NCBI GenBank assembly: GCA_965207225.1
Contig: CBDBLV010000005.1
Coordinates: forward strand, 1,120,001 to 1,184,000
Length of the DNA stretch: 64,000 nucleotides
Direction: 5' to 3'
Source: Dehalococcoidia bacterium
Lineage (GTDB): Bacteria > Chloroflexota > Dehalococcoidia > Plut-88900
A program made the translations under genes and the position numbers. A model generated the notes under the pieces. That model did not search any database, was not told the origin of the DNA, and saw nothing but the letters and a program-made list of their open reading frames with translations. Positions 48,753-60,419 of the stretch are shown in pieces. Position 1 is the stretch's first letter; every line of letters begins with the position of its first letter.

Positions 48753-49559
48753 TTGAACAAGCTCGACTATTCGGCGGTCGACCTACCGATTATCCGCCAC
48801 TACATGTTCTATCCTCGACCCGATTCCTCTCCCCCGTCCAATGGGGCAGTCGACCACTTTTACTCAGCGCATGACGGGGTCGAGCTGTGCGGTCGATTTT
48901 ATCCGGAGGACAAGGGAAGCCCCACCATACTGTTCTTTCATGGGAACGGAGAGGTAGCGCCGGAGTATGACGGCATCTCGTCGCTGTACAACCATATCGG
49001 GTTGAACCTGTTTGTGGCCGATTACCGGGGCTACGGGAAAAGCCACGGGGAGCCGTCAATATGCGCATTGGCGGAAGACAGCTACACAACGCTGACCACG
49101 TTGGAAAAGATGCTCAGGGAGCAGGGATACAACTCCTCCATTTACGTCATGGGGAGGTCGCTCGGGGCGTATTGCGCGGTGGAGATTGCGGCGGGGGCGC
49201 GGGAAAGCATCAAGGGAATCATCCTTGAAAGCGGCTCGGCGAATGTCGGGGGGATGCCTACGAGACTTGGCATCGCGAATAGACCTGACATCGCCAAGCT
49301 CATTCAGGAGCACTGGGACCGGGTCAAGGGAATCGAAACCCCCCTGCTTACGATCCACGGGGACCGGGACGACCTGGTGCCCATCTCCCATGCCGAGGAG
49401 CTCTACGATGCCATGGCCTCAAAAGACAAGACGTTCTTCACGATTCCCGGCGCGGGCCACAACGACATCATGTACGTGGACACGGACGGATACTTCCAGG
49501 CAATCCGGGACTTCGTGAGGCGGATAGAGGGCGTCAACTCTTCTTCCCTTCACGCATAG
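48753..49559 (+). CDS. Alpha/beta hydrolase
   Basis: FHGNG, DYRGYG, GRSLG, HG..D and GHND motifs. Confidence 0.92.
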   Translation: MNKLDYSAVDLPIIRHYMFYPRPDSSPPSNGAVDHFYSAHDGVELCGRFYPEDKGSPTILFFHGNGEVAPEYDGISSLYNHIGLNLFVADYRGYGKSHGEPSICALAEDSYTTLTTLEKMLREQGYNSSIYVMGRSLGAYCAVEIAAGARESIKGIILESGSANVGGMPTRLGIANRPDIAKLIQEHWDRVKGIETPLLTIHGDRDDLVPISHAEELYDAMASKDKTFFTIPGAGHNDIMYVDTDGYFQAIRDFVRRIEGVNSSSLHA

Positions 49560-49998
49560 TAACCAGCTCTTTGATGATCCTGTTCACGTGCCGGCCTATC
49601 CCCACAACGATATATTCGTTGGCTGAGCGGATAACGCCCTCTTCATCGATCAGGTAGGTCGTCCTGAAACCTCCCAGGACCCGCATGGACTGGTAAGCAT
49701 TCCTTATCTTTCTGTCGGGATCCGAAAGGAGTATGGCCTCAAGGCCGAGGTCTTCCCGGAATCGGGCGTTGACCTCGGGCTTGTCGGGGCTGACACCAGC
49801 GACGAGGGCGTTGTGCTGTTTGAAGGCTTCTACTGCATCACGGAAGCCCTTAGCCTGGATGCGTCAGAGGAGGCCGTAGGCGCCGTTGTAGAAGTAGAGG
49901 ACCACCGGCTGACTGCCGAGGTTATCGCTGAGTCTGAACTTCTCTCCGTCGTGGCGCACGGCCTCGAAGTCCGGGGCCTTTGTTCCTACCTTTAACAT
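49534..49998 (-). CDS. BCP/PrxQ-like peroxiredoxin B, probable selenoprotein (UGA at codon 45)
   Basis: [11 protein letters not shown]...[25 protein letters not shown]...GVSPD...LLSDPD...RTTYLID; frame open across TGA 49864-49866; GGAGG RBS. Confidence 0.85.
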
Positions 49999-50060
49999 TC
50001 CAACCTCCCGTCTAACTCGTGTTCGTCAATCTTGCACAGTCGCTTGTGTACATCTGGCGA

Positions 50061-50564
50061 CTAGACTCCCGGGGCTCGGGCGAGGCCATCCCTAGCCTCC
50101 AATAATCCACTTTTATCCAGGGCCTTCAGCCCTTCCATGACATCGTCAACATGCTTCCCGATCCGGAATTCGTGGTGGAAGACGCCCCTGACAACGCCGT
50201 CTCTGTCGATGAGATAGGTCACGCGGGACACCCCGAGTCCGAATCTACGGACGACGCCGTAGAGGCGGACGATTTTCTTGTCGGGGTCGGGGAGAAGGGT
50301 GAAGGGGAGGGAAAAGCAGGCGCGGAACCGCTGGTGACTTTCGGGGCGGTCGGGGCTAATGCCGACCAGGTCTGCTCCGTATCCCTTGATGGCTTCGTAT
50401 GCGTCACGGAAGCCCTGCGCCTGGCGGTTTCAGCCAGCGGTGAAGTTCTTGGGGTAGAAATAGAGTACGGCGGGCCTGCCGGCCCTCCATTCGGAGAACC
50501 GGAACTCCCTGCCGTCGTGGCGGAGGGCGTTGAAATCGGGGGCCAATGCCCCGGGCTTGAGCAT
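50061..50564 (-). CDS. bcp: BCP/PrxQ peroxiredoxin A, probable selenoprotein (UGA at codon 45)
   Basis: MLKPGALAPDF...VLYFYPKNFTAG-UGA-NRQAQGFRD...GISPD...RVTYLID; TGA 50430-50432 at the peroxidatic Cys position. Confidence 0.9.
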
Positions 50565-50739
50565 TCAGTTTTCCGCTTTTGAGAGATATCTGCAATTCTA
50601 CACCACGCCCACGCGGGTCACGGGGGGGTATTGTCCCTCAGGCGCCGGGCTGGCGGGAAGGGGCCTGACTCGGGGGTGGGGTTTGGGGTAGACTCTCCTC
50701 ACGCCCCGATAGGATGAAAACAACGCTGGAGGTGAAGAT

Positions 50740-51573
50740 ATGTTCGTAAGAAGGCTGGAGGACCTGGCCGGTACAGACAAGGAGATGGTCAGGACTGATG
50801 GGAACAGGAGACTGCAATCGAGGCGGTTGGTGACAAAGGCGGACGGCGCAGGATTTTCCATGTCGGACGTCAGGATATCGGAGGGCTGGGTGATCGACCT
50901 TTGGTACAAAAACCACGTTGAGGGGAACCTGGTGGTGAGCGGCGACCTGCACGTGGAGAACCTGGTTAACGGCGACAGCTGGGACCTGGGCGCGGGCGAC
51001 CTGTATGTGGTCGGGCCGAAGGACCGGCACCGGCTGACGGCCAACAGCGACGTCCACTTAGTCAGCGTCTTCAATCCCGCCACGCTGGGTACCGAGACCC
51101 ACGACGCTGATGGTTCCTATCCGCCCACCGGAGAACTCCCCCCCGAGTGGCAGGGAGAGGATGGCCGGACAATGTTCGTGAAGCGGCTGGCGGACACCAA
51201 GGTGGTTGGGATCAGCCACGGGAAGTCGACGGCATACCGGTATCTCAACCAGCCGGAGGGGTGGGGTTTCACCATGTCGACGCCGCGTTCGCCGGCGGGC
51301 AAGGGGATAGTGCTGTGGTACAAGAACCACGTGGAGGCGAACTACATCCTGGAGGGCGAGGGCACGGTGGAAGACCTAACGACGGGGGAGAAGTGGGACC
51401 TGGCCCCGGGCACGATGTATTTTGTCGGGCCGAAGGACAGGCACCAGACGGTTAAGTTCAGCGACACATACCTCCTGAGCGTGTTCAACCCACCCCTGGT
51501 GGGGCATGAGACCCACGACGAAGAGGGGACGTACACGCCGTCGGGGCCAATCCCCGAGGCCTGGAGGCCGTAG
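50740..51573 (+). CDS. Tandem two-domain ectoine synthase (EctC)-like cupin, copy 1
   Basis: Two repeats of WYKNHVE...Y..GPKDRH...VFNP...ETHD..G.Y; GGAGG RBS. Confidence 0.88.
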   Translation: MFVRRLEDLAGTDKEMVRTDGNRRLQSRRLVTKADGAGFSMSDVRISEGWVIDLWYKNHVEGNLVVSGDLHVENLVNGDSWDLGAGDLYVVGPKDRHRLTANSDVHLVSVFNPATLGTETHDADGSYPPTGELPPEWQGEDGRTMFVKRLADTKVVGISHGKSTAYRYLNQPEGWGFTMSTPRSPAGKGIVLWYKNHVEANYILEGEGTVEDLTTGEKWDLAPGTMYFVGPKDRHQTVKFSDTYLLSVFNPPLVGHETHDEEGTYTPSGPIPEAWRP

Positions 51574-51595
51574 AGACCAACCCGGAGGAGGACCC

Positions 51596-52429
51596 ATGTT
51601 CGTTAGAAGAGTCGATGACCTTAACGGGACCGACAAAGAGATGCTGGTGGAAAAGGACGGGGGCAGGCTGCAGGGCAGGCGGCTACTGACCAAGGAAGAC
51701 GGTTGTGGCTTCTCCTTTTCCGATGTGCGTATATCCGCGGGGTTCAGTGCGGACCTGTGGTACAAGAACCACGTGGAGGGGAACCTGCTGGTGTCGGGGG
51801 AGATGGAAGTGACGGAGCATTCGAGCGGCAACAGCTGGCAGTTGAGCGCGGGAGACCTGTACGTGGTCGGGCCGAGGGACCGACATCGGGGGACTGCGAA
51901 GACCGATTGCCACATCATCAGCGTGTTCTCTCCCGCCACGGTGGGCAACGAGAGGCACGATGCCGACGGCTCCTACCCGCCAACCGGGGAGATTCCCCCG
52001 GCCTGGCAGGGGGAGAACGGCCGCACGATGTTTGTGAGGAGGCTGTCCGAGACCCGGGTGGTGGGGATCAGCCACGGTCGGACCAAGGCATACCGCTACC
52101 TGACCCACGACGACGAATGCGGTTTCACTATCTCGACGCCGCGGGCACCTGCAGGCCAGGGGATCGTGCTTTGGTACCAGAACCACGTGGAGGCGAACTA
52201 CGTCTTCGAGGGTGAGGGCACCCTGGAGGAGAAGAACACGGGCAAAAAGTGGGACGTTGGGCCGGGTACACTGTACGTGGTCGGGCCGAAGGACCCACAC
52301 CAGCTGACCTCGAACACGGGATTCTACGTGATGAGCGTATTCAACCCGCCGCTCTACGGCGGAGAGACGCACGACGACCAGGGCGCTTATCCGCCCACGG
52401 GGCCTATTCCGGAGGCCTGGCGCCCGTAG
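51596..52429 (+). CDS. Tandem two-domain EctC-like cupin, copy 2
   Basis: Same 277-aa architecture; GGAGGAGG RBS. Confidence 0.88.
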   Translation: MFVRRVDDLNGTDKEMLVEKDGGRLQGRRLLTKEDGCGFSFSDVRISAGFSADLWYKNHVEGNLLVSGEMEVTEHSSGNSWQLSAGDLYVVGPRDRHRGTAKTDCHIISVFSPATVGNERHDADGSYPPTGEIPPAWQGENGRTMFVRRLSETRVVGISHGRTKAYRYLTHDDECGFTISTPRAPAGQGIVLWYQNHVEANYVFEGEGTLEEKNTGKKWDVGPGTLYVVGPKDPHQLTSNTGFYVMSVFNPPLYGGETHDDQGAYPPTGPIPEAWRP

Positions 52430-52517
52430 CTCAACAGCACACAGTCGATGAGATAGCGTGGCTGCTCATACTTGGCTCTATCGGGTATGAGCGGCCTCTT
52501 CATTTGCAGGTGGAATC

Positions 52518-53462
52518 ATGTTCGTAAGGACGCACGAGGATATCGCAGGGACCGAGAACGAGATGGTGCGGAGGGACGGGGACAAGTCACTGCGGTCTTT
52601 GAGGATGTTGACCAAGGCCGACGGTTGCGGCTTTTCGCTGTCGGATGCGTACTTTTCGGCGGGCTTCTCCCTTGACCTGTGGTACAAGAACCACGTGGAG
52701 GCCAACTTCATATTGAGCGGGGTGGTGCAATTGGACGATGTGACCTCGGGCGGGAGCTGGAACCTGGAAGGAGGGTCTCTGTACATGGTCGGGCCGAGGG
52801 ACAAGCACCGGCTGACTGCGAAAAGCGACGTACACCTGGTCAGCGTGTTCTGTCCGGCCGTGCTGGGAAACGAAAGACACGACGCGGACGGGGCCTTCCC
52901 CCCGACGGGCGACATCCCCCCGGCATGGCAAGGCCCCGACGGCCATACCATGTACGTCAGGACGCGGGATGAGGCACGGGAGGTGGGCATCAAGCACGTA
53001 GGGACGGAGGCGCGGCGATACCTCACGCAGTCTGACGGGTGCGGGTTCACCATATCCACGGCACGGCCGCCAGCCAAGTCGGGGGCCGACTTGTGGTACC
53101 GGAACCACGTGGAGGCGAACTACATCATAGAGGGCGAGGGGTCGGTGGAAGACTTGAACACGGGAGAGAAGTGGGACCTGGCGGCGGGGAGCCTGTACGT
53201 GGTCGGGCCGAGGGACCGGCACCGGATGAGTGCGCATAGCGAGGTCTATCTGATGGCGGTGTTCAACCCTCCGCTGGTGGGGGATGAGACGCATGACGAG
53301 CAGGGAGGTTATCCGCCCACCGGGGTGGTGCCGGAGGGGTGGGGGGTTGTAAGGGCTATGCAGAAACCACCTGAACTGTTAAGGACGAAACACGGGGACG
53401 CTACCCTTTGTGGTCTCTATCACTCCCTGACGTCGATAATCTCAAATTCGGCGAGCGGATAA
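52518..53462 (+). CDS. Tandem two-domain EctC-like cupin, copy 3 (probable true stop near 53352)
   Basis: Same architecture; one extra G in a G6 run shifts the final codons. Confidence 0.85.
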   Translation: MFVRTHEDIAGTENEMVRRDGDKSLRSLRMLTKADGCGFSLSDAYFSAGFSLDLWYKNHVEANFILSGVVQLDDVTSGGSWNLEGGSLYMVGPRDKHRLTAKSDVHLVSVFCPAVLGNERHDADGAFPPTGDIPPAWQGPDGHTMYVRTRDEAREVGIKHVGTEARRYLTQSDGCGFTISTARPPAKSGADLWYRNHVEANYIIEGEGSVEDLNTGEKWDLAAGSLYVVGPRDRHRMSAHSEVYLMAVFNPPLVGDETHDEQGGYPPTGVVPEGWGVVRAMQKPPELLRTKHGDATLCGLYHSLTSIISNSASG

Positions 53463-54994
53463 ATTTCGGGGTTCTGTGTTCTCGTAACTCCGATACCTCC
53501 GGCAATCAACACCCGCCCGTCGGACAAGACGGTTGCAGAGTGGTTCACTCGCGGTTTGGACAATTCCGGGCCCAGAGACCAAAGACCTGTAGCGGGATCA
53601 AAGATTTCGGTAAATGAGACAAAAGTCTGCTCTTCTGTAGACGAGGTCTGGATGTCCGAAGATTCCCACGGAAGCTCCACTCTGGCTCCTCCAGCAGCGA
53701 GCACTCGTCCGTCGGGCAGTAGAGACAGGGTAGCCGAGGCTCGCGGGTGAACCATCAGTCCCGCGGGGACCCATAGGTCGGTGCTGGGATCAAATACTTT
53801 AGCTCCAAAAAACCGGGCCTTGAAATCCGCCTCGGATATGCGGGCCCCGTCCGGGAGTTGGACGGATAGTATTTCGGTATCGTCATATTCGATGACTAGG
53901 TGAGTACCGTCAGGGAGCCGAAGAGTGTCGACTCCAGGGGAGCGTTCTACAGGAGTCGCATTATCGATTGCAATGTAATCGCCGGTTACCAACAACCTCT
54001 CATCGGCGAGTTCAACACCGTCTAAGTACACAAAGTAAGGATCAATACTTTCCAATGCGCTCCATTGGTCAGAGTCTGGATCGTAAACCTCTGCATGAAG
54101 AACAGTCGAGTCATAATCCAAAAGCACCGTTCCGATGGCCAGAACCCGACCATCTTCCAGTAAGAAAAGGTTCTGTTCTTCCATCGTCTCCTGTGTAGAT
54201 GCCGCTCGTGTCCAAGTTCCGGTTGAAGGATCGAAAATCTCTGAGGAATTCAGTTTATCGGGATTGGAGAAATATGCGATGTCGTCTGGGGTTACAGCCA
54301 AGCCAGCAGTCATGAAGACGCGTCCATCCTGAAGAAGAAGCAGATTAGGGAGAGCTCGGAGGGCAGAAGGGGGTGGCGCTGCAACCCAGGAATCCGAGTT
54401 TGCGTCGAACAGAGCGGCCATAGGAACAAACTCGCCGTCTTCATGAACTCTTACACCGACCATGAGAACTCTATTATCGGCTAACTCCACCAAGGAATAG
54501 AACGCTCCTGGGCCTTCGATAGGCTCCAATACAGTCCATTCTTCAGTGGAAGGGTCATAAATCTGGATGGGTCCAACCACAGCGTGAATGATCACGTTAT
54601 TGTTGGCTACCAGGCCGGTAATGCCGCCAGCTACTAGGACTCGGCCGTCTTCCAACGCAATCCCAGAATGTTGGAAGACTGGGGCGAACATGTGCGGGCC
54701 TGTAGTTTCCAGCCCCTGAATAGAGAGTGGCGTTGGGGCGGGGCGGGTGCCAGGTACTCCAGTAATGGTCGCGGTAGGGGCAGGTACGCTTGAGGCTGTA
54801 GGAGCAGGCGTTGGGGCACCCAGCAATTCGGGGCTGAGAGATGGGGAAACCGAGGTTGGGGAAGACGGCAATAGCGGGCTAGGGGACGGGGAAACAGGTG
54901 TAGGGGAAGGACCGAAAGACGATGGGTCTTCTATACAGCCTTGGGCTAGAGCCAAGGATAGCAGAAGGCAAAGGACCAGAAACCAGAGTTTCAT
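53420..54994 (-). CDS. Kelch-repeat lipoprotein
   Basis: Signal peptide ending AQGC, Pro/Ser linker, repeated L.DGRVL..GG...E.FDP..G.W units; lower GC. Confidence 0.88.
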   Translation of the reverse strand: MKLWFLVLCLLLSLALAQGCIEDPSSFGPSPTPVSPSPSPLLPSSPTSVSPSLSPELLGAPTPAPTASSVPAPTATITGVPGTRPAPTPLSIQGLETTGPHMFAPVFQHSGIALEDGRVLVAGGITGLVANNNVIIHAVVGPIQIYDPSTEEWTVLEPIEGPGAFYSLVELADNRVLMVGVRVHEDGEFVPMAALFDANSDSWVAAPPPSALRALPNLLLLQDGRVFMTAGLAVTPDDIAYFSNPDKLNSSEIFDPSTGTWTRAASTQETMEEQNLFLLEDGRVLAIGTVLLDYDSTVLHAEVYDPDSDQWSALESIDPYFVYLDGVELADERLLVTGDYIAIDNATPVERSPGVDTLRLPDGTHLVIEYDDTEILSVQLPDGARISEADFKARFFGAKVFDPSTDLWVPAGLMVHPRASATLSLLPDGRVLAAGGARVELPWESSDIQTSSTEEQTFVSFTEIFDPATGLWSLGPELSKPRVNHSATVLSDGRVLIAGGIGVTRTQNPEIYPLAEFEIIDVRE

Positions 54995-55045
54995 ATTGAA
55001 GAGGCCGTCAACAAACGGTTTTGACCTATCCGAGGTCTGGACACC

Positions 55046-56179
55046 CTAGTTCAGCCCGTACAGCGTCGCTGCATTCTCGCCAACTATCTTGACGGTTTCG
55101 TGCTGGGGGATGTCGTGGAAGTCCTTGGCGATCTGTTGCCGGGAGAAGGGGAATACGCCCTCGGGGTGGGGGTAGTCGGAGCCCCACATCAGCCTGTCCA
55201 CGTCGAGGAGCTCGCGGGTTAGAAGGCCGGCTCGGTCATCTTCGAACGTGGCCCAGAACTGTCGGAAGAAGTAGCTGCTGGGCGGCTCTTCCAGCTTGGG
55301 CTCCATCCAGTGGCGGTGATCCTCCCACCAGTGGTCGTTGAGGCGCAGGACGCTCGGGATCCAGCCGATACCGCCTTCGGCCATAACGAATTTCAGGCCG
55401 GGGAAGGCCTGGGGGACGCCGGAAAGAATGAGGTCGGTGAGGCCACGGGCCACGGCGCATATCTTCTGCTCAATAACTGCGACGCCGACGCCCATACTGC
55501 GGTACTTGTCGGCGCTAACGGACTTTGTGCTTGAACCGACGTGAAACCCCAAGGGCAGGCCGACATCCTGTAGGGCACCCCAGAGCCGGTCGCCACCTTC
55601 CATGTTGACGTATCCACCTTCAATTTCCAGGGGAAGCATTACGGATTTCAGCCCCAACCTAGCGCACCTCTCAACCTCGGCGATCTTGCTTTCGGTGGAG
55701 CCGCGCATGGGCAGGATGCCGACGCCCATGAGGCGGTCGGGTGAGGAGGCGCTGAACTCGGCGATCCAGTCGTTGTAGACGCGGACGATTTCGATGTGGA
55801 GGTCGGCGTCGGAGGCGTTGTAACACCAGAGACCGAAGACGCCGGGGTACATGATCTCGGCGCGGATGCCGTCCAGGTCCTGGTCCTTGAGGCGCTCGAC
55901 GGGGTCCCAGGCGCCGGGTCGGGTGTCCTCATAGCGGAGGCCGGCCATGTGGATCTCTTTGCCCTCGGCCTTGTCGGTGGCAGCGGTGCCCTCGCCTGAG
56001 AGTCCGATGGCGAACTCGCCGAAACCCTCCATCACGTAGAAGTCGCCTGAGTCCCGGGACTCGATGTGGGGGGCCTTGGCGGCCATCTTGCTGTCCATTC
56101 GAGACGTGAACAGGTCCCTGGGCTCCACAATGTGTCCGTCAGCGGAAACATAGCCTCCGGAAAGGGTGGTCGTTGACAT
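55046..56179 (-). CDS. Amidohydrolase (Amidohydro_2) family protein
   Basis: SADGHIVEP, FH, EGGIGW and WGSDYPH motifs. Confidence 0.92.
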   Translation of the reverse strand: MSTTTLSGGYVSADGHIVEPRDLFTSRMDSKMAAKAPHIESRDSGDFYVMEGFGEFAIGLSGEGTAATDKAEGKEIHMAGLRYEDTRPGAWDPVERLKDQDLDGIRAEIMYPGVFGLWCYNASDADLHIEIVRVYNDWIAEFSASSPDRLMGVGILPMRGSTESKIAEVERCARLGLKSVMLPLEIEGGYVNMEGGDRLWGALQDVGLPLGFHVGSSTKSVSADKYRSMGVGVAVIEQKICAVARGLTDLILSGVPQAFPGLKFVMAEGGIGWIPSVLRLNDHWWEDHRHWMEPKLEEPPSSYFFRQFWATFEDDRAGLLTRELLDVDRLMWGSDYPHPEGVFPFSRQQIAKDFHDIPQHETVKIVGENAATLYGLN

Positions 56180-56290: not shown

Positions 56291-57247
56291 ATGGGCAAAT
56301 CTGAAGACCGGCTGATGCCCGAGGCCTGGCAGGACGGGCCCCGGTACGGCAGCCCCAGCACCTTTATGCAAGTACCCGGCACGCGGGACCTGTCCAGGGC
56401 CGACGTGGCGGTGGTCGGGCTACCGCTGGACCTGGGAACGATAATTCGGTCGGGGGCGAGGTTCGGGCCGAGAGGGATACGGACGGCGTCGATGCACGTC
56501 GGGCTGCACGGTTTGGACGAAGCGGAACTTCGGGAGCCTTTCAAGAGCCTCCGGATTGTCGATTACGGCGATATCGAGCTGACCTACGGGTACATAGAGG
56601 AGGCGGTGAATAGGATAGAAAACGCGGTTTCGGAGATAATCTCGCATGACGTGTTCCCGGTGTGTCTCGGGGGCGACCATACGGTGTCGCTGCCCATACT
56701 GCGGGCGCTGTACAAGAAGCACGGGAAGATATCGCTGGTGCACTTCGACGCCCACCCCGACTTCTGGGAGCCGTCCAAGGACATGCCCCTCCATCATGGC
56801 ACCATGTTCCGGATCGCCTCGGACGAAGGGATCATGGATCCAAAGACGTCGGTGCAGGTGGGGATAAGGGGTCGGCCGGCCATGGGGATATTGGACAACG
56901 TAAGAGAGGCGGGCATCACGGTGATCACCGGCGAGGAGTTCTGGCACACCGGGGTTGATGCGACCATCGAGAAGATTAAGGAAGCCACGAAGAGTCGGCC
57001 GGTGCACATTTCGTACGACATCGACAGCGTTGACCCGGGTTTTGCGCCGGGAACCGGTACGCCGGAGGTTGCGGGACTGACGAGTCGGGAGGCGATGGCG
57101 TTGGTGAAGGGGCTGAAGGGAATCGGGACGGTGGGGTTCGATATTGTTGAGGTTGCCCCAGCCTACGACACGTCGGAGATAACCGCTCTGCTGGCGGCAA
57201 ACCTAACATTGCAGTTCATGCTGACCCTGGTCCCGGACAAAGAGTAG
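56291..57247 (+). CDS. Agmatinase / ureohydrolase family protein
   Basis: GGDH, DAHPD, DIDSVD and PGTGTP Mn-binding motifs; exact substrate uncertain. Confidence 0.92.
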   Translation: MGKSEDRLMPEAWQDGPRYGSPSTFMQVPGTRDLSRADVAVVGLPLDLGTIIRSGARFGPRGIRTASMHVGLHGLDEAELREPFKSLRIVDYGDIELTYGYIEEAVNRIENAVSEIISHDVFPVCLGGDHTVSLPILRALYKKHGKISLVHFDAHPDFWEPSKDMPLHHGTMFRIASDEGIMDPKTSVQVGIRGRPAMGILDNVREAGITVITGEEFWHTGVDATIEKIKEATKSRPVHISYDIDSVDPGFAPGTGTPEVAGLTSREAMALVKGLKGIGTVGFDIVEVAPAYDTSEITALLAANLTLQFMLTLVPDKE

Positions 57248-57265: not shown

Positions 57266-57637
57266 ATGGCTTCAAAGAGGACTTTTGAAGACTGGCTGGA
57301 GGGGGTGGAGCCCAGGCTGAGGCCAATGGCCCTGGGGCTGAGGCGGATGTTCCTGGATGCTGAGCCGGGGTTGGGGGAGTCGATCAAGTGGGGCAACCCC
57401 TGCTTTGAGAAGAAGCTGAGGGTGTTCTACCTGGCTTCGCAGGGGGACAGGTATATTACGCTGGGTTTGTGGCAAGGGGCACTTCTTCCGAACTCGGAGG
57501 GGCTGATCGAGGGGACGGGGAAGAGGATGAGGCACGTCAAGATCAGGACTGCAGAGGAGTTGGAGAACCCGGAGGTGGGGCGGATAATCCGGGAGGCGGT
57601 GGAAATAGACGGGACGGAGGGTACGAGTAACCGGTAG
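57266..57637 (+). CDS. DUF1801 (YdhG-like) protein
   Basis: E.IKWG.P and EGTGK.MRHVKI motifs. Confidence 0.88.
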   Translation: MASKRTFEDWLEGVEPRLRPMALGLRRMFLDAEPGLGESIKWGNPCFEKKLRVFYLASQGDRYITLGLWQGALLPNSEGLIEGTGKRMRHVKIRTAEELENPEVGRIIREAVEIDGTEGTSNR

Positions 57638-57898: not shown

Positions 57899-59149
57899 AT
57901 GGTTGACCATGCCGTCGAGGAGCGCGTCCTGCGCCAGATCAAGACCGAGCAGACCGTCAAGCTGGCCAGCGACCTAATCTCCATACCCAGCTTCAAGACC
58001 GAGGAGCAGAAGGTCGCACGGTTCCTGGCTCGATTCTTCCAGCGCCGCGGCTACGAGGTTGATCTACAAGAAGTCGAGCCGGGCCGGTACCAGACGATCG
58101 CGACGCTGAAGGGGTCGGGTGGGGGTAAGAGCCTGATGCTGAACGGGCACATAGACATCGACCCCTTGGCCATGGGCTGGGTGCGGGAGCCGTTCACGCC
58201 CAGCTGGGAAGGCGACCGGCTGTACGGGGCGGGCGTCAACAACATGAAGGGCGGCGTAACCGCAATCATCACTGCCGCCGAAGCGATTCGGAAGGCCAAG
58301 GCCCCGATGAAGGGCGACCTTGTCGTGGCGTGCGTGGTTGGCGAGCTACAGGGGGGTGTCGGGACAGTCTACGCGTTGAAAAACGGTATGAGGACGGATG
58401 GGGCGTACGTGGCTGAACCCACGGGCGACGGGGACAACATTATGACGACCCATGCAGGCGTGGTTGAACTGGCGATCAGCACGATTGGGCTGTCACAGCA
58501 CGTGAGTCGGTCTCACCTGGCCGTGGATGCGCTGGAGATGATGACAAAGGCTATCCCAGCAATCAAGAACGTGGACTTCACATACGAACACAGGCCCGAC
58601 CTGCCAGACCTGCCGCGAATCATTTGCGGGACGATTATCGGGGGTCGGGGGAGGAACCACGACCTGAAGGGGCCAAATTTCACCTGCGACTACTGTACGG
58701 TGATAGTCGATGCCCGGATAGTCCCCGGGCAGTCCCACGTCACGGTGAAGGCCGACCTGGACAGGGTGATGAGCAAATTCAAGGAAGAGGACCCGAACTT
58801 CGAATACGAGATCGTTACGCCCGTGCCACCCGAGTACAAGGTAATGACCGAGTTCATGAACCCGCTGGACGTTCCGAAGGACAACGTGATAGTGCAGAAC
58901 CTGGAGAAGGCATACACGAGGGTGTCGGGGCGGGCGCCGGATAAGGTCGGGGCTATTCTGACGCAGTCATACGCAGGCAACGACAGCTGCCACATCTGGG
59001 AGGCGGGGATACCGGTGTGTCTGATGGGGGCGGAGAACGGTCGGGACCAGAAGGGCGAACCCGACTCCTACGTCATAGTGCCGAGCATGGTGCAGTTGGC
59101 GAAGACGTACGCGATGGCGGCGCTGGACTGGTGCAACCAGGAGAAGTAG
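57899..59149 (+). CDS. M20 family (ArgE/DapE-like) hydrolase, copy 1
   Basis: LNGHID, NMKGG, VVGELQGG and AEP motifs. Confidence 0.9.
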   Translation: MVDHAVEERVLRQIKTEQTVKLASDLISIPSFKTEEQKVARFLARFFQRRGYEVDLQEVEPGRYQTIATLKGSGGGKSLMLNGHIDIDPLAMGWVREPFTPSWEGDRLYGAGVNNMKGGVTAIITAAEAIRKAKAPMKGDLVVACVVGELQGGVGTVYALKNGMRTDGAYVAEPTGDGDNIMTTHAGVVELAISTIGLSQHVSRSHLAVDALEMMTKAIPAIKNVDFTYEHRPDLPDLPRIICGTIIGGRGRNHDLKGPNFTCDYCTVIVDARIVPGQSHVTVKADLDRVMSKFKEEDPNFEYEIVTPVPPEYKVMTEFMNPLDVPKDNVIVQNLEKAYTRVSGRAPDKVGAILTQSYAGNDSCHIWEAGIPVCLMGAENGRDQKGEPDSYVIVPSMVQLAKTYAMAALDWCNQEK

Positions 59150-59174
59150 GACGAGGTACAGAAGAGGCAATTCG

Positions 59175-60419
59175 ATGGATGCAAGCGCAAAGCAGAAAGT
59201 CCTCTCCAAGATCAGGGACCGGGAGGTCGTAGACCTTTGCAGCAACCTGCTGCGGATCCCGAGCTTCAAGACGGAGGAGCAGAAGGTTGCCAGGTACCTG
59301 GCCGGCTACTTCCGGCGCCGGGGGTACGAGGTTGATCTGCAGGAGGTGGAGCCGGGTCGGTACCAGACGATAGCGACGCTTAAGGGGTCGGGCGGGGGGA
59401 AGAGCTTGATGCTGAACGGTCACATAGACATCGACCCCCTGGCCATGGGCTGGGCCCGAGACCCCTGGAGTCCAAGCTGGGAGGGCGACCGGCTCTACGG
59501 GGGCGGCGCTTTCAACATGAAGGGCGGCGTGGCGTCGATGATATCCGCGGCGGAGGCGATACGGAAGTCGGGGGTGGGGTTGAAGGGGGACATCGTGGTG
59601 GCGTGCGTTGTGGGTGAGCTGCAGGGAGGAGTGGGGACGGTGCATGCCTTGGAGAGCGGAGTATCGGCGGACATGGCCATTGTTGCGGAGCCTTTCGGGT
59701 CACGGACCATCATGACCACCCACGCAGGCGTTATAGGGATGGCGATAAACACCCTGGGCTACTCCACGCACATCACGGTGCGGGAGCAGGGAGTCGACGC
59801 CATAGCGAAGATGATGAAGGTGATCGATGCGGTGGACAAGGTCGAACTCAGGCACACGCCCCACCCCGAGCTGCCGGGTCTGCCGCGTATCAACTGCGGG
59901 GCAATCATAGGGGGTCGGGGGAGGGACCAGGACCTAAAGGGGCCCAACTATGTAAGCGATTTCTGCACCTCCATCTGGGACGTGCGGATTGTTCCGGGCC
60001 AGACCGCGGAGACCGTGGAAGAGGATGTTCGTAAAGTTCTCGAGGCTCTTGGCGCCGAGGACCCGGACTTAAGGTGGGAAGTAGAGATTCCACCGCCCGC
60101 CAAGTACAAGGGTGTGGCGGTCACCATGGACCCTGTGGACATCCCGAGGGACGAGTATATAGTCGGGGCGGTGGCGCGGGCGATGGAAGAGCACACAGGT
60201 TCGCCACCGGAGAATATCGGGGCAATTCTTCCCCGTTCATATGCGGGGAACGATACCTGCCACCTCTGGAAAGCGGGCATCCCGTGCGTGCTCAACGGCC
60301 CCGGGGGCGACCGAACCTTCGATGACGTGCCGGACACCTTTGTCTACGTAAGCGAGATGGTCGAGTGTGCGAAGACTCACGCCCTGACCGCACTTGAAGT
60401 CTGCAACCTGTCCGCCTAG
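59175..60419 (+). CDS. M20 family hydrolase, copy 2
   Basis: Colinear paralog of copy 1. Confidence 0.9.
   Translation: MDASAKQKVLSKIRDREVVDLCSNLLRIPSFKTEEQKVARYLAGYFRRRGYEVDLQEVEPGRYQTIATLKGSGGGKSLMLNGHIDIDPLAMGWARDPWSPSWEGDRLYGGGAFNMKGGVASMISAAEAIRKSGVGLKGDIVVACVVGELQGGVGTVHALESGVSADMAIVAEPFGSRTIMTTHAGVIGMAINTLGYSTHITVREQGVDAIAKMMKVIDAVDKVELRHTPHPELPGLPRINCGAIIGGRGRDQDLKGPNYVSDFCTSIWDVRIVPGQTAETVEEDVRKVLEALGAEDPDLRWEVEIPPPAKYKGVAVTMDPVDIPRDEYIVGAVARAMEEHTGSPPENIGAILPRSYAGNDTCHLWKAGIPCVLNGPGGDRTFDDVPDTFVYVSEMVECAKTHALTALEVCNLSA

Follow-up and report, generated by a model that had tools for sequence, protein, structure and literature searches.

Tandem genes for fused, double EctC-type cupins in a Dehalococcoidia genome and their possible function

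The array and its genes

A stretch of 64,000 nucleotides from the genome of a Dehalococcoidia bacterium (GCA_965207225.1, contig CBDBLV010000005.1, positions 1,120,001-1,184,000) contains on its forward strand three consecutive open reading frames—genes A, B, and C—each encoding two fused domains of the ectoine synthase (EctC) type. The whole stretch is referred to below as the window, and coordinates are window positions unless a contig is named. The features of the array are:

50728..50734, + strand: Shine-Dalgarno-like GGAGGTG, read from the sequence, 5 nt upstream of the gene A ATG
50740..51573, + strand: gene A, double EctC-type bicupin of 277 amino acids, with two PF06339 stretches (215.6 bits)
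51596..52429, + strand: gene B, double EctC-type bicupin of 277 amino acids, with two PF06339 stretches (212.5 bits)
52460..52496, + strand: 16-pair hairpin with a T-rich run after it, in the gap from gene B to gene C, resembling a terminator or attenuator
52518..53462, + strand: gene C, double EctC-type bicupin of 314 amino acids, with two PF06339 stretches (223.0 bits)

The sequence-only reading of this DNA that preceded our analysis had described three tandem double-EctC genes, and two full-length PF06339 stretches were found in each of the three proteins. It had also given all three paralogs a length of about 277 residues and ended the array at 53352; both values have to be corrected for gene C, whose frame extends to 53462 and encodes 314 residues, including a 37-residue tail specific to this genome. 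In gene A the N domain spans residues 1-139 and the C domain residues 145-277, and the ortholog in a genome of the same genus is 98% identical. The first possible start of gene B is at 51506; the conserved MFVRR start at 51596 gives the 277-residue product and leaves a gap of 22 nt after gene A, and the gene B orthogroup is conserved across the genus. The gap between genes B and C is 88 nt.

The conserved part of gene C ends near 53350. Homology to its relatives breaks about 10 codons upstream of the usual stop, at the insertion of a Kelch-repeat gene, and the 37-residue tail overlaps the 3' end of this convergent gene. When DNA contigs of four sequencing runs were compared, the window stretch was present in two studies, and the gene C/Kelch junction is bridged by contigs of runs from the second study. 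A search for runs carrying the stretch listed none of RNA.

The hairpin at 52460-52496 may be an internal terminator or attenuator. Three terminator-like sites occur in the region against a mean of 1.8 in shuffled sequence, which is no excess. A consensus scan gave no promoters around the array, and no regulatory RNA was matched in Rfam up to E = 1 in 49000-55500.

Both halves belong to the EctC family

Each of the three proteins was compared with family models and solved sequences. The two matches per protein expected of the Pfam family Ectoine_synth (PF06339, cut-off 27 bits) were obtained, and all three proteins score 219-227 bits with the NCBIfam model NF009806 'ectoine synthase', above its cut-off of 128 bits. 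No other cupin family scores better: all of the others reach at most 46 bits. Among solved sequences, the closest come from two ectoine synthases, those of P. lautus (5ONO, 5ONN, 5ONM; E ~1e-24) and S. alaskensis (5BXX). The halves of one protein share 38-46% identity with each other; with two EctC proteins from ectABCD clusters, carried on plasmids of Sphingobium and Aminobacter, each half shares 30-37%. A Pfam scan of the proteins found no DNA-binding domain.

The metal site is kept and the substrate pocket is changed

The roles of individual residues were taken from PMC6344544, and P. lautus numbering was applied through alignment to solved EctC. The metal triad Glu-57/Tyr-84/His-92 is present in all six window domains, in line with the intact metal sites that the sequence-only reading had described, and in all 14 domains encoded in the genome. 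Tyr-52, Phe-106, and Arg-25 are kept in the genome's domains, and His-55 in 13 of the 14. The motifs WY(K/Q/R)NHVE, Y-x2-GP-x-D-x-H, and E-x-HD-x2-G-x-Y/F, which had been reported for all six domains of the array, are indeed found in every one.

The pocket is a different matter. Trp-21 is present in none of the six window domains, with Leu at this position in the N-halves and Ser, Thr, or Ala in the C-halves, and Thr-40 is likewise replaced throughout, by Val, Pro, or Ala. Position 38, which is Asn in EctC, is Ser in all six, and Cys-104 has become Ser in five. An N-terminal W-x-S-x-R segment had been described as missing from every domain, which holds for the Trp; the Arg is present in 6/6 domains, and the Ser in two of the three N-halves.

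A cross-phylum survey of 44 N-halves and 44 C-halves from many phyla extends this pattern. Glu-57 is kept in 42/44 N-halves and 44/44 C-halves, Tyr-84 in 43/44 and 39/44, His-92 in 41/44 and 44/44, Tyr-52 in 41/44 and 44/44, and Arg-25 in 38/44 and 42/44. Trp-21 and Thr-40, on the other hand, occur in 0/88 halves each, 85 of the 88 have no Trp in the 8 residues before Arg-25, and Cys-104 is replaced by Ser in 82. The specificity that had been supposed to be altered is thus borne out at the level of the pocket, with Trp-21 and Thr-40 replaced in 88/88 halves.

In EctC, the residues contacting N-gamma-acetyl-diaminobutyrate (N-gamma-ADABA) are Trp-21, Arg-25, Asn-38, Thr-40, Tyr-52, as well as Glu-57 (PMC6344544), and the fused proteins do not carry this set in full. 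Thr-40 contacts the attacking alpha-amino group, and an Ala variant of P. lautus EctC at Trp-21 retains 9.7% activity (PMC6344544). As judged by residue conservation, the changed pocket points to a substrate other than that of ectoine synthesis.

Origin of the fusion and predicted fold

The N-half ends in a tail, YPPTGE(I/L)PP(A/E)WQG, which contains the PP(A/E)WQG linker noted earlier and parallels the C-terminal tail YPPTGPIPEAWRP. After this linker tail come about 5 extra residues and then Met-145, which is invariant in 18/18 sequences and at least 90% conserved in 83. With the C-terminal tail motif recurring in the linker and the second copy still carrying its start Met, we read the family as having arisen through in-frame fusion of two tandem EctC-type genes.

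A tree was built from 112 domains over only 137 columns, and some entries treated in it as single-domain could be pieces of a fused gene. One clade (94 in the Shimodaira-Hasegawa-like approximate likelihood-ratio test, SH-aLRT) takes in every one of the 88 halves along with 13 of the 21 single-domain metagenome proteins that were sampled; the two ectABCD-encoded EctC proteins and one solitary Ruegeria EctC fall outside it. The grouping of N-halves and C-halves is strong and imperfect, with 6 and 7 label changes where shuffles need about 35. A single ancient fusion is likely on this tree.

An AlphaFold2 model of gene A, built from an alignment of 83 rows, has a mean predicted local distance difference test score (pLDDT) of 95.3 and a predicted template-modelling score (pTM) of 0.92. 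It aligns with B. subtilis YxaG (1y3t_A) with Z 22.8 and a root-mean-square deviation of 3.2 over 241 residues (model range 1-267) and with ureidoglycine aminohydrolase with Z 21.1; Foldseek comparisons with bicupins, scaled to the length of the query, give template-modelling scores of 0.64-0.66. Quercetin dioxygenases and oxalate decarboxylases rank first among the whole-chain structural matches, and EctC chains are absent among those listed, which come from single-chain comparison only. The model agrees with the fused pseudo-dimer proposed earlier in that it is a confident bicupin.

Distribution of the fused form

The fused architecture is widespread, as a survey across sequence collections shows. 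A search among proteins of near length gave 470 clusters at E <=1e-3 among 1065 candidates. Nearly all of the 120 clusters listed are 270-290 amino acids long, and their source names, from Dehalococcoidia, Chloroflexota, and Alphaproteobacteria, are only 'ectoine synthase', 'L-ectoine synthase', or generic cupin. The ESM Atlas holds clusters of 275 amino acids automatically named 'putative ectoine synthase'. A search of representatives returned 759, 395, and 47 matches at E <=1e-3, 1e-10, and 1e-30, although the family collapses there into few 50%-identity clusters, so that these numbers are little guide to its size.

Scanning species-representative genomes gave 273 encoding stretches, of which 71 loci were kept, all in metagenome-assembled genomes. 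They span Dehalococcoidia, Alpha- and Gammaproteobacteria, Rokubacteria, Binatia, Gemmatimonadales, Desulfobacterales/Thermodesulfobacteriota, and Entotheonella; two of those in Rhodospirillaceae (L033, L038) are tandem arrays of five fused genes. Among 60 relatives of the source bacterium, all eight genomes of its genus carry 7-14 domain matches and the three of other genera in its family carry 2 each, whereas none of the 49 from other families of the class has a match above the cut-off (weak matches occur in 2). The genus copies form one clade (SH-aLRT 99) that adjoins the single-copy genes of the sister genera, and the genus paralogs divide into orthogroups common to several species, from which we conclude that the paralog expansion is old and maintained.

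Seven paralogs in a split locus

The source genome (5 contigs totalling 4.03 Mb; completeness 92.3%, contamination 8.3%) has 14 Ectoine_synth domain matches in a profile search, corresponding to seven fused genes whose frames are all open. The three genes of the window, which had been taken for the set, are accompanied by four more in tandem on contig C1 (C1:56472-60063). Directly upstream of the C1 array is an M24/creatinase-type hydrolase, for which the best NCBIfam models are those of DoeA (142 bits against a cut-off of 575) and the closest solved sequence is the ectoine hydrolase DoeA (E 6.5e-30). Downstream of gene C in the window lie:

53420..54994, - strand: Kelch-repeat protein of 524 amino acids with a lipoprotein-like N-terminus (Pfam Kelch families)
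55046..56179, - strand: Amidohydro_2 TIM-barrel protein (PF04909, 99 bits), with homologs in 15 loci
56291..57247, + strand: ureohydrolase of the agmatinase/guanidino-acid hydrolase group (PF00491, 301 bits; NF002564, 308.7 bits against a cut-off of 302)
57266..57637, + strand: DUF1801 protein (PF08818), in 8 loci, a neighbour conserved within the genus
57899..60419, + strand: two tandem M20 deacylases of the ArgE/DapE family (57899-59149 and 59175-60419; PF01546, PF07687)

In three other genomes of the genus (L021-L023) both pieces stand together in a single locus, which runs from a DAO/SoxB-type FAD oxidase and an M24 gene through six fused EctC genes to Amidohydro_2 (on the opposite strand), the ureohydrolase, DUF1801, and the M20 deacylase; the window thus holds the distal half of a split locus. 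The Amidohydro_2 protein, a conserved neighbour of the array in Dehalococcoidia, has PtmU3 and DitZ as its closest solved sequences. The ureohydrolase is closest to guanidinobutyrase 3nio (E 8e-77), and its homologs occur in 10 loci, two of them in Gammaproteobacteria. The M20 deacylases, found in 7 loci, score best with TIGR01910 (189 and 204 bits), below its cut-off of 217.6. A dienelactone hydrolase and a glyoxalase-fold gene are also near the window array. The Kelch gene has no homologous neighbour at the other loci, and in the closest relative (L018) the array leads directly to Amidohydro_2. The comparison identifies the Kelch gene as an insertion private to this genome, which replaced the last codons of gene C and so added the 37-residue tail.

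Two further observations concern these neighbour families. In sister-genus loci L028 and L029, a single fused EctC gene lies among 4-5 Amidohydro_2 paralogs within 7 kb. The M24 creatinase/DoeA-like proteins are expanded in the source genome, where about 18 of 30 matches to the DoeA_2 model are full length and all are below its cut-off (best 387 against 575 bits), and three DoeA-like genes stand in tandem at C5:1209451-1213168, about 25 kb past the end of the window.

Neighbours in other lineages

The flanking open reading frames of the 71 loci were clustered, with gene maps drawn by third-position guanine-plus-cytosine content; 7 of the 71 loci lost their EctC call in the process. Outside Dehalococcoidia the commonest partner is a Rieske oxygenase alpha-subunit, which is in the flanks of 19 of the 71 loci and directly upstream on the same strand in 10 proteobacterial ones. 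Its best NCBIfam model is GbcA, below cut-off; among solved sequences it is closest to CntA, a carnitine monooxygenase (E 7e-74 across the full length), and next to the demethylases 4QUP and Stc2 (3VCA). Other proteobacterial partners are TauD and PhyH dioxygenases, a glutathione-dependent formaldehyde-activating enzyme (GFA), and a GCV_T aminomethyltransferase. There are also 2-3 deacylases of the AstE/AspA family, with DoeB as their sole NCBIfam match, a weak one (28 against 403 bits), along with SDR and amine oxidase genes, an AsnC-type regulator, and solute-binding proteins of ATP-binding cassette transporters. The annotated neighbour clusters include no acyltransferase, aminotransferase, nonribosomal peptide synthetase, or other biosynthetic partner. 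By family assignment, the common theme of the neighbours is the uptake and breakdown of zwitterionic nitrogen compounds.

Just upstream of the window array, on the opposite strand, are two tandem peroxiredoxin genes of the Bcp/PrxQ type (49537-49998, - strand, and 50064-50564, - strand). Each has one in-frame TGA (49864-49866 and 50430-50432, respectively) at the position of the peroxidatic Cys, and when TGA is read as selenocysteine both products match Pfam AhpC-TSA end to end, with 111.7 and 101.7 bits. The genome carries tRNA-Sec, with SelA and SelB above their cut-offs. Both genes have a GGCUUC...GAAGCC hairpin about 17 nt past the UGA, with a stability not above that of shuffles. Among the listed differences from contigs of the sequencing runs, beyond which there are 150 more, none falls at the two TGA codons. 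These are likely to be selenocysteine peroxiredoxins, to judge from the reading frames and the decoding genes. The pair is echoed in the gammaproteobacterial loci L043 and L045, where an AhpC/TSA peroxiredoxin gene adjoins the fused EctC gene or sits one small open reading frame beyond it.

The ectoine pathway is not found

No ectA or ectB gene is present in the window, as had been reported, and the search was extended to the whole genome and to its relatives. EctA (TIGR02406) has no match in this genome, and the best match to EctB (TIGR02407), which is outside the window, reaches 196 bits against a cut-off of 552. DoeB has no match in the genome, and EctD has one, at 19.6 bits, below its cut-off. 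Five single-contig genomes of the same genus gave EctA in 0/5 and EctB above cut-off in 0/5, so that the pathway genes are not supplied elsewhere in this genome or in those five. Among 15 carrier genomes outside the genus, EctA is above cut-off in one, about 110 kb from the fused gene. Since the genus is without EctA and EctB, the double-EctC proteins are, on this gene content, not enzymes of ectoine biosynthesis.

Proposed function and alternatives

We propose, with moderate confidence, that the double-EctC proteins are metal-dependent C-N hydro-lyases of the EctC type with a changed substrate and a catabolic role rather than one in ectoine synthesis. The metal of each barrel would serve as a Lewis acid that polarises a carbonyl or amidino carbon, as proposed for EctC, and the outcome would be ring closure with loss of water or, in catabolism, ring opening by hydrolysis. 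Candidate substrates are carboxylate-bearing, nitrogen-rich small molecules, for example cyclic amidines or guanidines and N-acyl or N-amidino amino acids; with Arg-25 kept, the substrate would retain its carboxylate, and it would differ where Trp-21, Thr-40, and Asn-38 touch N-gamma-ADABA. Products might then be taken over by the deacylases, ureohydrolase, M24 hydrolase, and oxidase encoded nearby, and the paralogs probably take different substrates, widening the range. We infer the type of reaction and the direction in which it runs, the class of substrate, and the metal; the opening or forming of cyclic amidines, the function suggested by the sequence-only reading, fits the catabolic neighbours.

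Several observations weigh against a catabolic hydro-lyase. The neighbourhoods vary by lineage, without any one partner common to all, and within 7 kb many of the 71 loci show no neighbour that is recognisably catabolic. The DoeA_2 model gives 30 matches in this genome, among which the array-adjacent copy ranks only 18th, and since the genome is full of paralogs of the neighbour families, some of the adjacency may be chance. Amidohydro_2 and Rieske neighbours are also compatible with aromatic or redox catabolism, and cupins that share this fold differ widely in their chemistry, which extends to dioxygenation and decarboxylation. The sequence would allow ring opening as well as ring closing.

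A wider form of the proposal is offered tentatively, as a possibility we would not yet favour. Here the double-EctC proteins would constitute a new class of C-N hydro-lyase that opens or closes rings in cyclic amidine, guanidine, and N-acyl molecules resembling compatible solutes, and they would work in unrecognised routes of osmolyte catabolism together with CntA-like Rieske oxygenases, DoeA-like and guanidino-acid hydrolases, and deacylases. By such routes, marine Dehalococcoidia and Proteobacteria that are abundant and uncultured would gain osmolytes as a food source. In one chain the diverged barrels may handle two different substrates or two consecutive steps, and the tandem arrays would represent expansion of the substrate range, by analogy with the known paralog expansions of SAR202-type bacteria.

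The foremost alternative, which we consider unlikely, is a shift to redox chemistry, in which the proteins would be bicupin oxygenases or ring-cleaving enzymes acting after the Rieske oxygenase, as gentisate dioxygenase does with salicylate hydroxylase. The quercetin dioxygenases and oxalate decarboxylases that head the whole-chain structural matches would suit such a role, as would the Rieske alpha-subunit gene that stands directly upstream in 10 proteobacterial loci and the Amidohydro_2, dienelactone hydrolase, and glyoxalase-fold genes near the window array. The metal ligands, however, are the EctC-specific Glu/Tyr/His. Cupin dioxygenases use 3-His or 3-His-1-Glu sets, unlike those here. 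Identity to the redox bicupins is 13-20%, compared with 30-37% to cluster-encoded EctC; moreover, the Rieske partner is closest to CntA and Stc2, enzymes that oxygenate quaternary amines and do not hydroxylate aromatic rings, and the Dehalococcoidia loci have no Rieske neighbour.

Next in order, and also unlikely, is a role as biosynthetic cyclases, which would receive N-acyl diamino acids from other enzymes and turn them into further cyclic amidines and solutes related to these, or into building blocks of natural products. The Amidohydro_2 neighbour is closest to PtmU3 and DitZ, of which PtmU3 comes from natural-product biosynthesis, and the family is common in symbiont-rich groups such as Entotheonella. 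Ring closure is itself the chemistry of EctC (PMC6344544). What speaks against this role is the company that the genes keep: their conserved partners are hydrolases, oxidases, demethylation-linked genes, and uptake systems, and no biosynthetic partner was seen among the annotated neighbour clusters.

It is improbable that the fused proteins are working ectoine synthases supplied with N-gamma-ADABA through import or by enzymes that have no relation to EctA and EctB, a role proposed for the solitary EctC of Pseudomonas syringae (PMC5924519). In favour are the strong hidden Markov model matches, the retention of the metal triad, Tyr-52, Glu-57, Phe-106, and Arg-25, and the complementation of a Halomonas ectC mutant reported for the solitary ectC of P. 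syringae (PMC5924519). Both Trp-21, whose Ala variant is so impaired in P. lautus EctC, and Thr-40, the alpha-amino contact, are nevertheless lost from every one of the 88 halves. Seven conserved paralogs are hard to square with one substrate, the six genus genomes lack EctA and have EctB only below cut-off, and the surrounding genes encode hydrolases and oxidases rather than osmostress functions.

A non-enzymatic nature, as ligand-binding or regulatory cupins or as decaying duplicates, has nothing direct in its favour beyond the frequent use of small cupins as sensors and is the least credible explanation of all, given the catalytic triad conserved in both halves across phyla, the seven open frames, the orthogroups kept across species of the genus, and the lack of a DNA-binding domain.

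Novelty and significance

The sequences themselves are not new, as hundreds of them are present in databases, labelled 'ectoine synthase'. Full-text literature searches turned up no paper about an EctC in fused or double form, and the main texts of PMC5924519 and PMC6344544 use neither 'bicupin' nor 'fused' for domain architecture. What appears to be new is to recognise in them a separate, fused family whose pocket differs, whose genes form multi-copy arrays, and whose context is catabolic. The fused form offers a sharper test case for the function of EctC outside ect clusters, as its conserved partner genes suggest candidate substrates and the family is widespread in uncultured marine and soil bacteria.

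There is also a practical consequence. Annotation pipelines give these proteins the name "ectoine synthase", and any survey that takes EctC as its marker would therefore miscount these Dehalococcoidia, and many Proteobacteria, as ectoine producers; a genome with seven copies would look like a strong producer though it is without EctA and EctB. Were the opening or forming of cyclic amidines or guanidines to prove true, the turnover of osmolytes rich in nitrogen would gain a new step from this family, and such rings would gain new biocatalysts.

Comparison with known systems

The closest known system is EctC itself (P. lautus 5ONM, 5ONN, and 5ONO; S. alaskensis 5BXX), which belongs to the same Pfam family as both halves and shares with them the Glu/Tyr/His metal site, Tyr-52, His-55, Glu-57, Phe-106, Arg-25, and the conserved C-terminal 'lid' motif, so that the same Lewis-acid C-N hydro-lyase chemistry is probable. 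It differs in being a head-to-tail homodimer of single-cupin chains of about 130 amino acids, whereas here two domains, each 30-37% identical to the two cluster-encoded EctC proteins, share a chain of 277 and have Trp-21, Thr-40, and Cys-104 replaced. The fused genes also stand apart in having no ectAB partner and in forming multi-copy tandem arrays in catabolic surroundings.

Solitary or orphan EctC proteins (Czech et al. 2018, 2019) are likewise encoded outside ect clusters, and Ser at position 104 is common in both groups. They were first seen in Pseudomonas syringae; a substrate related to N-gamma-ADABA was suspected by the authors, and the function of EctC-type proteins outside ect clusters has been called unresolved (PMC5924519, PMC6344544). 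The 145 published orphans are reported to keep Trp-21 and most substrate residues and are single-domain proteins as described there (PMC6344544), whereas the double-EctC proteins are fused and lack Trp-21. This loss, set against the retention of Trp-21 in the orphans, marks the fused family as a distinct group and not as another kind of orphan.

Bicupins such as (S)-ureidoglycine aminohydrolase (4E2Q), YlbA/DUF861, and quercetin dioxygenase YxaG (1Y3T) share the two-barrel fold along their full length, with Z 20-23 and 216-241 aligned residues, but with only 13-20% identity, other metal ligand sets, and a sequence relation only at the level of the cupin superfamily. One bicupin enzyme, ureidoglycine aminohydrolase, is also metal-dependent, cleaves C-N bonds, and acts in nitrogen catabolism.

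Distant relatives of the ectoine-degrading enzymes DoeA (M24) and DoeB (AstE family) recur as neighbours of the double-EctC genes, although both have folds unrelated to double EctC. Their scores (142 against 575 bits for the M24 protein and 28 against 403 for the AstE proteins) indicate that these neighbours are not ectoine-specific orthologs. If double EctC opens rings, it would do the kind of job that DoeA does by way of another fold.

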